A stretch of DNA of 64,000 bases from Minisyncoccia bacterium (GTDB taxonomy: Bacteria > Patescibacteriota > Minisyncoccia > Phycocordibacterales > UBA918), in the NCBI GenBank assembly GCA_041750655.1, contig JBGSYZ010000015.1:7119-71118 (forward strand). Reading direction: 5' to 3'. Positions 6,748 through 49,992 of this stretch are shown piece after piece; positions within the stretch are counted from its first letter, which is position 1, and every line of letters begins with the position of its first letter. Both the position numbers and the translations under genes were made by a program. The notes below the pieces were generated by a model, which was given only the letters and a program-made list of their open reading frames with translations, was not told the DNA's origin and made no database searches.

Positions 6748-6806
6748 TAAATCTGAACGTTCCTTCTGAGTGCTGCTCGGATACAATCGAGCAGCTTTCT
6801 AAGGAG
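6748..6806 (+). repeat. 58-bp direct repeat (copy 1): 5' leader with hairpin and AGGAG
   Basis: aaatctgaacgttccttctgagtgctgctcggatacaatcgagcagctttctaaggag is identical to the copy at 7308-7366. Contains an 8-bp stem gctgctcg/cgagcagc. Confidence 0.9.
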
Positions 6807-6881
6807 CGAATGCTCCCACGCGTTCCGTAGCCATGTTGGCTCGGATGATAACGCAGTGTTCCTTACATGGAGGAAGAAAAA

Positions 6882-7220
6882 ATGCTGATGTTCTTGCAGT
6901 TTGTAATCGGGGCGCTGCTCGCCGCGGCTGGCTATGCAGTCTGGTACGCTGGACGCAATGTCGCCTGGAAAGCGCGCCTCGAACGGAACTTCCTAATGCC
7001 GGGCGACGACCTCTTCGCGCGCAAACGTGCCTACAGCGGCTACGTGCGGTGGCTTCGCTATGTCGCATTTCCGACCGGGCTCGTGATGCTCGTTCCGACA
7101 CCACTCATGCACGATGTGATCCTCGGCCTCATCGCTGCCGGCCTCTTCTGGTGGATGAATCGCCAAAAGGTGGCCTATGACCAGGCGGTCACGACAGCCA
7201 ATAAACGTTCGACGAAGTAG
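6882..7220 (+). CDS. hypothetical membrane protein (2 TM)
   Basis: ORF track begins at 6867; the GGAGG-supported ATG is at 6882. About 62% GC. Confidence 0.4.
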   Translation: MLMFLQFVIGALLAAAGYAVWYAGRNVAWKARLERNFLMPGDDLFARKRAYSGYVRWLRYVAFPTGLVMLVPTPLMHDVILGLIAAGLFWWMNRQKVAYDQAVTTANKRSTK

Positions 7221-7307
7221 TGTTTATCGCTCGTAGGTAACATTCAAACACATGACCTGGCGGCAGTTCGCCAGGTCATACCATCACAGCTATTGATTTC
7301 TTCTAAC

Positions 7308-7366: not shown

Positions 7367-7420
7367 GAGTGTAAAAACTCTTTCATGTTCCACCACTATA
7401 TCGGTGTGGGAGATAACATG

Positions 7421-8383
7421 AAGCACTTTGAAATGCCAAAGGAGGCAATCAAGATGGAAACTCAATTTCCTGTCAAAAAAATCACCACTACTGCAGCCGC
7501 AGCCCTGGCTGCTGCCATCATCGTCTTCGGTTCAATCTATGTTGTTTCTGAAGGTGAACGTGGCGTGCTTACCCGCAACGGTGCGTTTGTTGCGGTCAAA
7601 GAACCCGGTCTCGGCTTCAAGGTTCCGATTATCGACAGTGTGACCGACATGGAAATTCGTAACATGCGGATTGAAGTGCCGGTGCATGTCTACAGTTCGG
7701 ACACACAGCAGTACGAAGCCGCAGTGTCGGTCAACTATGATCTCAACCCTGCGGAAGTCGAACGGATCTTCAAGTCGGAAGGTGTCTACTATGCCGACCG
7801 GCGTCTGAAGCCACTTGTCGAGACCATCCTTAAGGAGGTGGCAGGCAAGTATTCTGCTCAGCGCACCATCCAGGAACGTGATGTTTTCGGTGCCGCCGTA
7901 CGCGATGCTATCCGCGAGGAAGCGCAAAGCTATGGCATTAACGTGACTGAGGTGCAAATCACCAACATCGATTTCACCGACCAGTTCGAGAATGCTATCG
8001 AAACGGCTATGCTGGCGAAAGCCAAGGTCGAAGAGGAACGTAACATCCTCGAGCAGAAGCGTATTCAGGCTGAGACGCGCGTCGTTGAAGCTACCGCCCA
8101 AGCTAATGCACTGCGTGAGCAGGCAAAAGGTGAAGCGGACGCTAAGCGGACGCAAGCTGAAGCTGAAGCAACCCGCATCTCTCAAATCGGGCAAGCTGAA
8201 GCTGATGCTATCCAAAAGAAGGCTAATGCACTTCGCGACAACCCAGAACTGACCGCCTACACCTATTCTTTGGCGGCGCAGAATTGGGATGGCGCCTTGC
8301 CGACACAATTTGTGCCGGGTTCGACGCTTCCGATTCTAAATGTTGCACCCAAGGGTGATAATTCCACTCTTGTGGGCAACTGA
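7421..8383 (+). CDS. SPFH/band-7 (prohibitin/HflK-HflC-like) membrane protein
   Basis: N-terminal TM, SPFH domain (GERGVLTRNGAF...VPIIDSV...) and a C-terminal Ala/Glu-rich coiled coil. Start is uncertain (7385, 7421 or 7454; the last two have an RBS). Confidence 0.8.
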   Translation, partial: KHFEMPKEAIKMETQFPVKKITTTAAAALAAAIIVFGSIYVVSEGERGVLTRNGAFVAVKEPGLGFKVPIIDSVTDMEIRNMRIEVPVHVYSSDTQQYEAAVSVNYDLNPAEVERIFKSEGVYYADRRLKPLVETILKEVAGKYSAQRTIQERDVFGAAVRDAIREEAQSYGINVTEVQITNIDFTDQFENAIETAMLAKAKVEEERNILEQKRIQAETRVVEATAQANALREQAKGEADAKRTQAEAEATRISQIGQAEADAIQKKANALRDNPELTAYTYSLAAQNWDGALPTQFVPGSTLPILNVAPKGDNSTLVGN

Positions 8384-13640: not shown

Positions 13641-13764
13641 AGCGATGCAAGGGTTTGTTTTAGATAGTGATATTAAAAATGGTTCCACTGGGTTGGTAGG
13701 GAAAAGAAAAGCCACCCTCTCGCCGAAACGAAAGGGTTGCTTTCAGTTTTGCCAGGGGTGGCGG

Positions 13765-14235
13765 TCAGCGTGGTTCGTATTCGTCCCAACGCTTCACTTC
13801 ACCGTACAGAACTATGTAGACACCAGGCGGTAGCGTTTGCACCGCCCCGACAGCCATACCGACGTTGAAGTCGGCATCGGACTCACGGAAGCGTTCGGGG
13901 GTCATGGCGCCCGTCAGAATGATAGTCTTGTCCGTGATGTCAGACAGATGCTCGGCAGTGACGTGAATGGTGTCGGTGCCGTGCAGAATGACCACCTTGT
14001 CTTCGTGCGCGGACGCCGCGATGCGTTTGATGGCATCACGGTCATCGTCATCCATGTCCAGGCTGTCTTCCTGGCAGGCGCAGGTAAACCCCACTGCGTA
14101 GGGAATACCAGCACGACGACAGATACGATGCCAGGCCGATTCGCCGATGACGAAGTTGTAGCCATGGTTGTCATCGTTGGCCAGATAGTCCTTGTCGATG
14201 GTGCCACCTGCTTGAATAAAGCGAATGATACTCAT
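13765..14235 (-). CDS. asparaginase N-terminal-domain-like protein (standalone, ~156 aa)
   Basis: FIQAGGTIDK and VVILHGTDTI motifs resemble the L-asparaginase/GatD N-domain. Start MSIIRF has a GGGGGTGG RBS and an ATGA overlap with the upstream gene. GC-rich. Confidence 0.45.
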   Translation of the reverse strand: MSIIRFIQAGGTIDKDYLANDDNHGYNFVIGESAWHRICRRAGIPYAVGFTCACQEDSLDMDDDDRDAIKRIAASAHEDKVVILHGTDTIHVTAEHLSDITDKTIILTGAMTPERFRESDADFNVGMAVGAVQTLPPGVYIVLYGEVKRWDEYEPR

Positions 14236-14582
14236 ACGTTGCCACCCCCGTAAGTTTCTGCACCAGCTTCGGTCGTGCACCAGCACACCGATTCGATGCC
14301 GCCGTTGATTGGCCGAACGACTTCGACCGATTTCTTGGTCACGGTCATCAGGTATTTGGCGATAACCGTGCAGCATTCAAGGAATTCAGGACGAGTGAAG
14401 TCCTTTTCTTCCATGAAAACGTGCACGACCATCACGTCAGGTTGCGTCAGCCCATCACTGGTTTCAACCCAGATGAAATGTGGGTAGACATAGCCCATGA
14501 CGTTGCTGCCAAGCGCTTTGACTTGCTCGACCTGCGTTTCGGTAGGGTGGCTGTCAGCCACGATTCTGAAAATTGGCATCAC
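14232..14582 (-). CDS. hypothetical protein (possible tautomerase-superfamily, N-terminal Pro)
   Basis: 116 aa beginning MMPIF; size and N-terminus are reminiscent of MIF/tautomerases, but sequence similarity is not established. Confidence 0.25.
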   Translation of the reverse strand: MMPIFRIVADSHPTETQVEQVKALGSNVMGYVYPHFIWVETSDGLTQPDVMVVHVFMEEKDFTRPEFLECCTVIAKYLMTVTKKSVEVVRPINGGIESVCWCTTEAGAETYGGGNV

Positions 14583-15133
14583 ACTTCCTTTCAGATAGCG
14601 ACGACGTGGCCGAGAGCCATGTTGTCGTCAGGGGGTGAAGAGTTGCTTGATCTCGGCCGTTTCTGGTGAAGGCGGCTTTCAGTTCATCGAAGGTATATAG
14701 GGTCAGCCACATACCGCTGGTATTCTCGGCTTCCAGCACGTCATCGAACCCGAACGGGGTCGAAAACATGCCAGGCTAGCCAGGCTTCAGGCAGGCCCGA
14801 AGCGATGCCAGGGTAGGTCGCGCCCAGACCGCGCACTTCACCGACTTCGAACGTATGGCCAGTGAATTCCCACTGCTTCTTGCAGTAGTCGATGCTGGCC
14901 GCAGACGGGTCGATGCCGACGTAGTTCGTGATGCCGAGTTCAGGCAAAATGCTGATGACTCTGCCGATACGACACCCGACATCAACCACTTCGCCGTCGG
15001 CAGGTACGTCCCTGAAGATATGGCGAGAGAAGTGGTCGACCCAGATTGGTGTGTCTGACGTATCACCAGCACGAATGTATTCATCGTACATGGCGACAGC
15101 CCCTGTTTCCATGGGTGAGAGTGCGAGTTCCAT
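14554..15133 (-). pseudogene. class I SAM-dependent methyltransferase interrupted by a +1 frameshift
   Basis: N-terminal ORF (14741-15133) carries the VVDVGCRIG motif I. The C-terminal continuation (FGFDDVLEA...) is in another frame (14554-14769). Removing one C from the CCCC run near 14745 restores a single frame. Confidence 0.5.
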
Positions 15134-49382: not shown

Positions 49383-49520
49383 GCGTTAGAACAAGGAACG
49401 CAAGCGACTATGTTCTTAGACCGATCCGTAAAATGCTTCCCAAGATGAAGCATTGAGGATCCATTGGTATAAAGCCTAAATAAATTTAATTAGTGGAATT
49501 TATCAATTCCACTAGACTAA

Positions 49521-49548
49521 AAAACCGCCTACATAAGCGGTTTTTTTG
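49521..49548 (+). terminator. terminator after rpsR
   Basis: aaaaaccgc-ctacataa-gcggttttttt. Confidence 0.8.
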
Positions 49549-49580
49549 GGTGTGTTTGTAGACAAATCCACAGTTGTATG

Positions 49581-49610
49581 TTGACAAATTGTGTTAAATA
49601 TTATATAATA
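49581..49610 (+). promoter_or_regulatory. perfect consensus sigma70-type promoter
   Basis: TTGACA, a 17-nt spacer, then TATAAT, followed by an A-run; lies 35 nt upstream of a small GC-rich ORF. Confidence 0.6.
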
Positions 49611-49644
49611 AAAAAAGAGAAGAGTCAATGGAAAGGGAAAACAA

Positions 49645-49818
49645 ATGGGCAAACTGCTGTTCGACGATCCACTCGCCATGGGCGGGCCAATTGTCGCAAT
49701 GACCCGCGAGGACAAGAGTCCGAAAGGGCGTTTCAATTTTATTGTCTGGGTCGCTGAACACGCGATCGGGGCGACTGCCAGGGTCCTGAAACCCCACAAG
49801 GTCGGAGGTGTATCGTGA
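49645..49818 (+). CDS. hypothetical 57-aa peptide (GC-rich micro-operon, gene 1)
   Basis: Hand translation MGKLLFDDPLAMGGPIVAMTREDKSPKGRFNFIVWVAEHAIGATARVLKPHKVGGVS; about 60% GC; below the ORF-track cutoff. Confidence 0.35.
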   Translation: MGKLLFDDPLAMGGPIVAMTREDKSPKGRFNFIVWVAEHAIGATARVLKPHKVGGVS

Positions 49819-49928
49819 AAGAGCATCAGGACGATGACCACTACGCTGGGCCCCAATGGCTCGGACTGGTAATCCTGTTATCGTTCATCGCACCACTGAT
49901 TGCGGTGCTCGTGTATGCGCTCAGCTAA
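49815..49928 (+). CDS. hypothetical 37-aa single-TM peptide (gene 2, GTG start overlapping the upstream stop)
   Basis: GGAGG 7 nt before the GTG; product VKEHQDDDHYAGPQWLGLVILLSFIAPLIAVLVYALS; terminator hairpin immediately downstream. Confidence 0.35.
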   Translation: MKEHQDDDHYAGPQWLGLVILLSFIAPLIAVLVYALS

Positions 49929-49936
49929 GTGCGTAC

Positions 49937-49975
49937 CCCAAAAAAGACCCGTCGCACTCTGTGCGGCGGGTCATC
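49937..49975. terminator. bidirectional terminator (micro-operon and efp)
   Basis: gacccgtcgcac-tctgt-gcggcgggtc. Confidence 0.7.
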
Positions 49976-49992
49976 TTCATTTTATTCTATAT

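Follow-up and report, generated by a model that had tools for sequence, protein, structure and literature searches.

A predicted two-gene small-protein operon between rpsR and efp, restricted to one clade of uncultured Paceibacteria

In a 64-kb stretch of bacterial DNA (contig JBGSYZ010000015.1; the whole stretch is referred to as the window) we analysed a micro-operon that occupies the gap between rpsR and efp. The genes at the locus are arranged in the order rpsF-ssb-rpsR on the plus strand, micro-operon (plus), efp (minus), a gene for an extracytoplasmic function (ECF)-type sigma factor (plus), an open reading frame (ORF) for a membrane protein of 115 amino acids (aa; plus) and recA (minus). 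The nearest genomes are metagenome-assembled genomes of Paceibacteria that resemble Kaiserbacteria and Nomurabacteria, the identity of EF-P to the best species representative being 80%, and the order recA-sigma-efp-rpsR-ssb-rpsF is kept in essentially all of the 80 loci fetched from GTDB. The micro-operon comprises two small overlapping frames, ORF1 and ORF2, between a promoter and a terminator (Table 1). With a probability of about 0.8 we read it as a protein-coding bicistronic operon that is restricted to one clade of uncultured Paceibacteria within the Patescibacteria, or candidate phyla radiation (CPR).

The original prediction had described a textbook sigma70 promoter that is rare by chance, a 57-codon ORF downstream of it, a GTG-started 37-codon ORF that overlaps the stop of the first, follows a strong GGAGG and encodes an acidic N-terminus plus one transmembrane (TM) helix, and a hairpin terminator directly behind. 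All of these elements are present. The promoter fits the consensus at every position, and the exact string TTGACA-17-TATAAT is found only once in the 64 kb and never in 100 dinucleotide shuffles (0/100). The proposed unit, running from promoter to terminator and holding two translationally coupled tiny genes of which the second specifies a single-TM peptide, is supported at the level of sequence.

Table 1 Features of the micro-operon and its flanks (positions refer to the window unless a lineage is named)
Feature	Position	Strand	Remarks
rpsF-ssb-rpsR terminator, intrinsic, bidirectional	49519..49546		inverted repeat AAAAAACCGCCTA/TAAGCGGTTTTTT, 92% complementary, flanked by A-run and T-run
Sigma-70-type promoter TTGACA-17-TATAAT	49581..49609 (-35 49581-86; -10 49604-09)	+	12/12; predicted transcription start site ~49616
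Divergent promoter TTGACT-17-TATAAT	49600..49628	-	11/12; predicted transcription start site ~49593; overlaps the plus-strand promoter
5' untranslated region	49616..49644	+	purine-rich AAAGGGAAAAC ahead of ORF1, read from sequence
ORF1	49645..49818	+	57 aa, without TM helix; conserved motif FNFIVWVAEHA at 49732-49764
Shine-Dalgarno GGAGG for ORF2	49804..49808	+	inside the 3' end of ORF1, 6 nt before GTG, read from sequence
ORF2	49815..49928	+	37 aa, GTG start overlapping the ORF1 stop as GTGA
ORF2 acidic N-tail motif DDHYAGPQWLG	49833-49865	+	followed by a single C-terminal TM helix, ~49860-49922
Micro-operon/efp terminator, intrinsic, bidirectional	49946..49982		stem-loop 49946-49972, 12 pairs (9 G-C), then T-run
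Spans scored for GC content at third codon positions (GC3)	window 49645-49928; L081 1088-1410; L164 101-390		small ORFs

Relatives of the micro-operon are few. Synteny notwithstanding, none was found in the 80 GTDB species-representative loci by nhmmer, tblastn or profile search. A second scan of metagenome contigs, for which EF-P served as the bait, led to the lineage L081, whose EF-P is 96% identical to that of the window, and an exhaustive HMMER search of 1.84 billion representative proteins yielded a third lineage, L164 (EF-P 90% identical). This search gave three true matches only, all from this clade; the 1437-aa repeat protein P0004 was rejected as a false positive that had entered via its FTFVVWVV repeats. 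Three further loci, L161-L163, are copies of L081 with more than 99% identity. Word-indexed protein searches were run with ORF1 and with the alignments of both ORFs; apart from the window's own protein they recovered only the L081 lineage, ORF1 matching itself alone among 5.8 billion proteins, and direct peptide-pattern scans of metagenome and viral contigs gave no matches. In L081 and L164 the units are likewise located between rpsR and efp, or adjoin efp. The expectation that annotation would miss both ORFs held in part: ORF1 is present in the NCBI and Logan protein collection, and both ORFs have been called in the JGI/Logan homologues.

Comparison of the three lineages bears directly on whether the two frames are translated. 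Between lineages the efp genes share ~80% DNA identity with saturated synonymous sites (proportion of synonymous differences, pS, 0.66-0.78), and the EF-P proteins are 88-96% identical, as compared with 24-46% for the micro-operon peptides. Window and L081 agree in just 42-48% of the nucleotides between promoter and terminator, the stretch of ORF1 and ORF2, yet both frames remain open within the same boundaries. In every lineage pair the proportion of nonsynonymous differences in the ORFs (pN, 0.34-0.56) is smaller than pS (0.60-0.82), and the top translated alignment per genome pair lies in the annotated frame, in ORF2 for window-L081 (score 76) and window-L164 (101) and in ORF1 for L081-L164 (137). 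Both ORFs exhibit the codon-position periodicity GC1 > GC2 < GC3, the values for ORF1 being 0.63/0.44/0.67, and T is enriched at codon position 2 of ORF2. Reading-frame conservation had been named as the decisive check, and both frames are conserved at the protein level against the two other lineages, arguing that ORF1 and ORF2 are translated genes.

As the micro-operon is GC-rich within an AT-rich genome (56% versus 44% GC) and has a strong promoter as well as a terminator, we also considered a structured non-coding RNA gene in which the ORFs would be incidental. The whole transcript folds with z scores of -3.6 in the window and -3.2 in L081, and a high GC3 is kept in all lineages, both of which would suit an RNA gene. 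However, the z score amounts to only -1.29 once the terminator hairpin is removed, the covariation term of alifold is small (-2.6 kcal/mol), and the open frames, TM character and peptide motifs have outlasted the fall of nucleotide identity between window and L081 to the low values given above. A hairpin of the form GGUCGC-N7-GCGAYC within the ORF1 motif is predicted in the window and in L081 but not in L164, indicating that the constraint acts on the peptide. Rfam 15 gave no family for 49616-49940 even when the filters were relaxed and the threshold was set at E ≤ 10, and ARAGORN detected neither a tRNA nor a tmRNA in the micro-operon, so that known RNA genes such as RNase P, SRP, 6S, tmRNA and others, which we had searched at the gathering threshold as well as at E ≤ 10, were rejected. 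The weak Rfam matches that did occur (SraG, RNAI, AgrB and leader families) all fall on the rpsR terminator at 49426-49608, outside the micro-operon. We regard an RNA gene as extremely improbable.

The TM helix of ORF2 reaches a Kyte-Doolittle maximum of 2.81 over 19 residues, a value attained by 0 of 20,000 shuffles, and the hydrophobic maximum of the L081 peptide is likewise reached by 0 of 20,000. ORF2 is 34-42 aa long in the three lineages, its N-tail being polar or acidic and its C-terminal part a single TM helix. The motif DDHYAGPxWLG is common to the window and the L164 peptide (MNAEPDDHYAGPHWLGIVIL...), and across the 15 codons of the longer common block DDHYAGPxWLGxVIL seven synonymous differences face two nonsynonymous ones when counted by eye. 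With no more than 50 residues, a single TM helix and constraint at the protein level, ORF2 has the properties of a small membrane protein, and the sequence evidence argues that it is a real small membrane peptide.

The junction of the two frames is conserved. Stop and start overlap by 4 nucleotides (nt) in all three lineages, as GTGA in the window and in L081 and as ATGA in L164, and a Shine-Dalgarno (SD) element precedes ORF2 by 6-8 nt (GGAGG in the window, GAGGAGG in L081, AGGAG in L164). An overlapping stop/start together with an SD element inside the upstream ORF, both retained in relatives, is the arrangement of a coupled bicistron. A single gene split by a frameshift was rejected, as the ORF2 frame is closed upstream of the GTG by a TGA at 49755-57 and the two-ORF layout recurs in all lineages.

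ORF1 homologues are 61-65 aa long in L081 and 62 aa in L164. All three lineages retain F[ND][FI]x[IV]WVxxH, with synonymous changes in the F codons, and the motif region of window and L081 aligns in BLASTP with E=5e-6. L081 and L164 additionally share HYxGLxGLDWDDxP, and the corresponding N-terminal HY-GL-GLDWDD block is lost in the window. We therefore weighed the possibility that ORF1 is mainly a regulatory or coupling leader that feeds the start of ORF2, leaving ORF2 as the sole functional product in a mok-like manner. This would agree with the strictly conserved stop/start overlap, with predicted folds in which the SD element and the start of ORF2 can pair with downstream codons, and with the near-neutral divergence of the window ORF1 from L164 (pN 0.56, pS 0.60) that accompanies the lost block. 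Against it stand the motif common to the three lineages, with its synonymously changing F codons, and the comparison of L081 with L164, where ORF1 is under clear purifying selection (pN 0.34 versus pS 0.74, 28 of 61 residues identical) and yields the best frame score of all. A mere leader role for ORF1 is unlikely in our view.

Several points weigh against the bicistronic operon as we read it. The comparison is limited to three diverged lineages plus near-identical copies, and the saturated synonymous sites make a proper dN/dS estimate impossible, the protein-level alignment moreover biasing the above pN values downward. BLASTP gave no alignment between the ORF2 peptides of window and L081. 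The window ORF1 is the most divergent copy, as evident from its comparison with L164, and in the lineage of the window it may matter mainly as a coupling ORF. An AlphaFold2 model of ORF1 from a two-sequence alignment was uninformative (predicted local distance difference test score, pLDDT, 49.9). The elevated GC3 hints at an additional constraint, either at the RNA level or related to recombination, that a two-gene model leaves unexplained, and both the partnership of ORF1 with ORF2 and the non-toxic role proposed below are read from the architecture. Apart from these points, the three proteins disagree on which lineages are most alike: by ORF1 L081 pairs with L164, by ORF2 the window pairs with L164, and by EF-P the window pairs with L081. 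This suggests rate heterogeneity with lineage-specific bursts or recombination within the unit.

Base composition had been taken as a sign of a GC-rich insert of about 60% GC. The segment is indeed GC-rich but less so than stated, the two ORFs having 56.3% and the transcript 55.6% GC in a window of 44.1%; the ORFs rank in the top 1.4% of 284-nt windows, and local 100-nt windows reach 0.54-0.60. GC3 is 0.65-0.68 in ORF1 and ORF2 across the three lineages, except for L081 ORF2 (0.57), as compared with 0.34-0.51 in the neighbouring genes and a mean of 0.415 (standard deviation, sd, 0.084) in the long ORFs of the window, so that GC and GC3 of the micro-operon lie ~3 sd above those of the host genes. 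As GC3 is high in all lineages despite complete turnover of the synonymous sites, something maintains it, and the high GC content is thus a maintained property and not a leftover of a recent transfer.

This observation bears on the proposal that the unit is a recently acquired foreign cassette of higher GC content, or an assembly chimera. The compositional offset from the host genes fits such an origin, as do the lack of a homologue in the 80 nearest GTDB species loci and the heterogeneous gap contents among relatives. Yet the unit occupies the same locus in three lineages whose efp genes have reached synonymous saturation, GC3 is maintained in them instead of decaying, the three true matches among the 1.84 billion representative proteins all belong to this clade, and no similarity to phages, plasmids or viral contigs was found. 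We found no direct repeats flanking the micro-operon. The chimera is excluded by independent assemblies from different samples that hold homologous GC-rich units at the same locus. Recent acquisition or misassembly is hence very improbable, and the micro-operon appears instead to be an old, vertically kept, fast-evolving unit that belongs to an orphan family.

The plus-strand promoter is perfect (12/12) in L081 and L164 as well, and its core and flanks are conserved against a background of saturated efp synonymous sites, the segment 49560-49628 being ~89% identical between window and L081 by a count made by eye. A second, divergent promoter on the minus strand matches the consensus at 11 of 12 positions in the window and in L081 (1437-1465) and at 12 of 12 in L164 (59-87), the hexamers being kept while the spacer varies. 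The -10 hexamers of the opposed promoters overlap and share ATTATATAAT, with the predicted transcription start sites (TSSs) lying 23 bp apart; opposite-strand promoters with overlapping -10 elements define a bidirectional promoter, which this would be if the predicted TSSs hold. The minus-strand promoter would yield a short RNA of ~50-75 nt that ends at the rpsR terminator. According to Warman et al. 2021, as summarised in PMC10268837, bidirectional promoters built on -10 symmetry have divergent TSSs 7-25 bp apart, the commonest spacing being 18 bp. The promoter pair described here resembles this class in its overlapping opposed -10 elements and in a predicted spacing within the 7-25 bp range, but differs in that the spacing is 23 bp and not the prevailing 18 bp, and in that (near-)perfect -35 hexamers are present in both directions and kept in three lineages.

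Within the window the signals of the micro-operon are out of the ordinary. In 34 of 44 long ATG-started ORFs an SD-like motif is absent within 20 nt of the start, and many genes carry a TGnTAnAAT-like box 8-14 nt before the ATG (for example those starting at 1811, 36896, 44822, 45575 and 50670), suggesting that mRNAs of the source genome as a rule have no leader or a very short one. Given that SD motifs are rare and short leaders apparently common, the consensus -35/-10 elements and the strong internal SD element of the micro-operon are locally unusual, which would suit an internal cistron that has to recruit ribosomes for itself. The 5' untranslated region contains GTCAA(G/T)GGA in all three lineages. 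Taken as a whole, the micro-operon is probably highly expressed.

Just 5' of the -35 element L164 carries two tandem nonamers resembling DnaA boxes at 11-30 (TGTGGATAA, GTGGATAAG), the equivalent in the window being AAATCCACA. A replication origin or control by DnaA was rejected: the window contains 16 DnaA boxes where 16.1 are expected, and a switch in GC skew is absent.

Both terminators have counterparts in the relatives. The one behind rpsR is conserved in L081 as a hairpin of 15 pairs and would also end any RNA made from the minus-strand promoter. All three lineages have the terminator that adjoins efp at its 3' end; in L164 it is recognised on either strand and in L081 on that of efp. 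Its stem shows two double compensatory changes in L164, one pair turning from C-G into A-U and the other from A-U into G-C. As it also reads as a terminator on the efp strand, it would be common to the micro-operon on the plus strand and the convergent efp on the minus strand.

Based on these features we propose a model in which the TSS, the coupling, the membrane insertion, the topology and the ORF1:ORF2 interaction are all predicted from sequence. The consensus sigma-70 promoter would start an mRNA of ~360 nt near 49616, from which ORF1 would be translated into a 57-aa soluble protein with the motif F-N-F-x-[IV]-W-V-x-x-H. Translation of ORF2 would follow either by reinitiation at the GTGA or by recruitment of ribosomes through the GGAGG upstream of it. 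The C-terminal ~21 residues of ORF2 would form one TM helix, leaving the short acidic N-tail (DDHYAGPxW) at the membrane interface, and transcription would stop at the bidirectional hairpin that is shared with convergent efp. Coupling would lead to roughly equal amounts of both products, implying that they might act jointly as a small membrane-associated pair. We infer that this pair consists of a soluble partner and a membrane anchor or regulator and is not a toxin system.

A toxic-peptide or toxin-antitoxin-like module had been suggested before. In a type I system of this kind ORF2 would damage the membrane, gated by the upstream ORF as hok is by mok, together with an antisense or divergent RNA. 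ORF2 is a small hydrophobic single-TM peptide as type I toxins are, in every lineage its translation appears coupled to that of the ORF that overlaps it upstream, the conserved adjacent divergent promoter could give rise to the ~50-75-nt RNA, and the unit evolves fast and is lineage-restricted. However, neither ORF1 nor ORF2, whether taken from the window or from L081, matched any family in Pfam (including the Hok, Ldr, Fst, TisB and Ibs models), PADLOC, NCBIfam or PHROGs at E ≤ 1, be it a toxin, a defence or any other Pfam family. An antisense promoter is found neither within the unit nor at its 3' end in any of the three lineages. As for the divergent RNA, there is no overlap with the mRNA, conservation of its body does not extend to L164, and shuffled controls form duplexes with the mRNA that are as good as its best one (fractions 0.53 and 0.56), for which reason we rejected it as an antitoxin. 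Type I toxins mostly carry a basic tail, whereas ORF2 has an acidic N-tail and no basic C-tail; the conserved peptide motif of ORF1 and a perfect consensus promoter, at which repression is not evident, also speak against a toxin. Lacking the defining antisense companion and having an untypical tail, the micro-operon is quite unlikely to be such a module, which favours the co-produced pair of a soluble and a membrane protein.

Comparison with hok/mok/sok illustrates this. The systems share a short mRNA with its own promoter, a hydrophobic single-TM peptide and coupling to an overlapping upstream frame, but the micro-operon has no antisense RNA gene or complementarity and no sequence membership in that family, its peptide bears an acidic N-tail and no basic tail, and its upstream ORF has a conserved motif of its own. 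AcrZ, KdpF, CydX and MgtS are bacterial small membrane proteins (up to 50 aa) that bind and modulate larger membrane complexes. ORF2 resembles this class, which is reviewed in PMC11539335, in its size, its single TM helix, the absence of a signal peptide, its lineage restriction and in that such genes often go unannotated or unnamed. It differs in having no sequence similarity to these proteins, in not being located beside a transporter or oxidase operon and in being apparently co-translated with a dedicated small soluble partner. In N-out peptides of the Pf3 coat type a short acidic N-tail followed by one hydrophobic helix favours translocation of the N-tail. ORF2 shows the same succession of a short acidic N-tail and one helix, which would suggest a similar topology, but it has neither a basic C-terminal segment nor a phage context.

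The position between rpsR and efp seems to be occupied by small membrane-protein genes more generally. Among relatives the efp-rpsR gap ranges from 15 bp to 2.8 kb. In the 81 relatives' loci with a gap of 150-1300 bp (from the series L003-L126) we counted ORFs of at least 30 aa with a hydrophobic stretch of TM grade, and found 55 on the rpsR strand versus 3 on the efp strand; by our own count from the listing they occupy 45 of the 81 loci. These ORFs fall into 51 BLASTP clusters, with similarity being limited to near-identical genomes, and no Pfam family was found for them. Two-TM hairpins of 55-66 aa and peptides with a C-terminal anchor make up many of them (examples are L007 4680-4913, L103 3649-3852, L109 2894-3049 and L113 3645-3797), and several loci hold two small ORFs in tandem. 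In view of the pace at which ORF1 and ORF2 diverge among the three lineages of the clade, the most economical interpretation is an old slot for small membrane proteins in which the occupants change until they are no longer recognisable, the micro-operon being its local version and homology being traceable among close relatives only; repeated gene turnover is the alternative.

A more far-reaching proposal is that the rpsR-efp gap of Paceibacteria is a locus that keeps its position, evolves very fast and serves small membrane peptides with high expression, equipped here with a conserved perfect bidirectional promoter. The divergence, the ORF1/ORF2 incongruence and the GC3 would then result from diversifying selection and/or recombination, with the N-tail being exposed on the surface of an episymbiont at the interface with host or phage, or with the two products forming a self-protecting toxin/immunity couple. 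We offer this as a speculation with a low chance of being correct.

CPR/Patescibacteria have small genomes, and their membrane biology, including host attachment, uptake and the envelope, is largely unknown. An orphan two-peptide membrane module at a conserved position therefore offers functional studies a concrete target that is small and inexpensive to synthesise. Its promoter is conspicuous in a genome whose genes for the most part seem to have neither the -35/-10 consensus nor an SD element. The micro-operon also shows how quickly small membrane-protein genes may diverge, which bears on the way orphan small ORFs are judged elsewhere. As an orphan two-gene small-protein operon it joins a known category, the small membrane-protein genes, and should it encode no more than an accessory pair of small proteins, it would extend the list of known small proteins in an ordinary way.

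The surroundings of rpsR hold two further features. A segment of ~52-76 nt just 3' of rpsR (49388-49439) recurs 3' of ssb in the L081 lineage with 84-88% identity (reverse strand of L081; L163 1718-1793) and may be a shared regulatory or terminator-associated element. In the relatives L001, L012, L014 and L030 a protein family ending in DDPYFxRVDxELKxKGL is encoded just after rpsR; the window keeps only ...EDPLV-stop at ~49450-49470 (GAGGATCCATTGGTATAA), which is possibly a remnant of this family.

Apart from the micro-operon, two islands with at least 56% GC in 284-nt windows are present in the window, at 6761-7285 and 13681-15100. The first contains an ORF for a 117-aa protein with three TM helices (6867-7220); downstream of it lies a 332-aa ORF (7385-8383) with an SPFH/band-7-like appearance, judged by eye only. 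The second contains three minus-strand ORFs (13765-15133), and GC3, computed for 13765-14376 alone, is 0.63.

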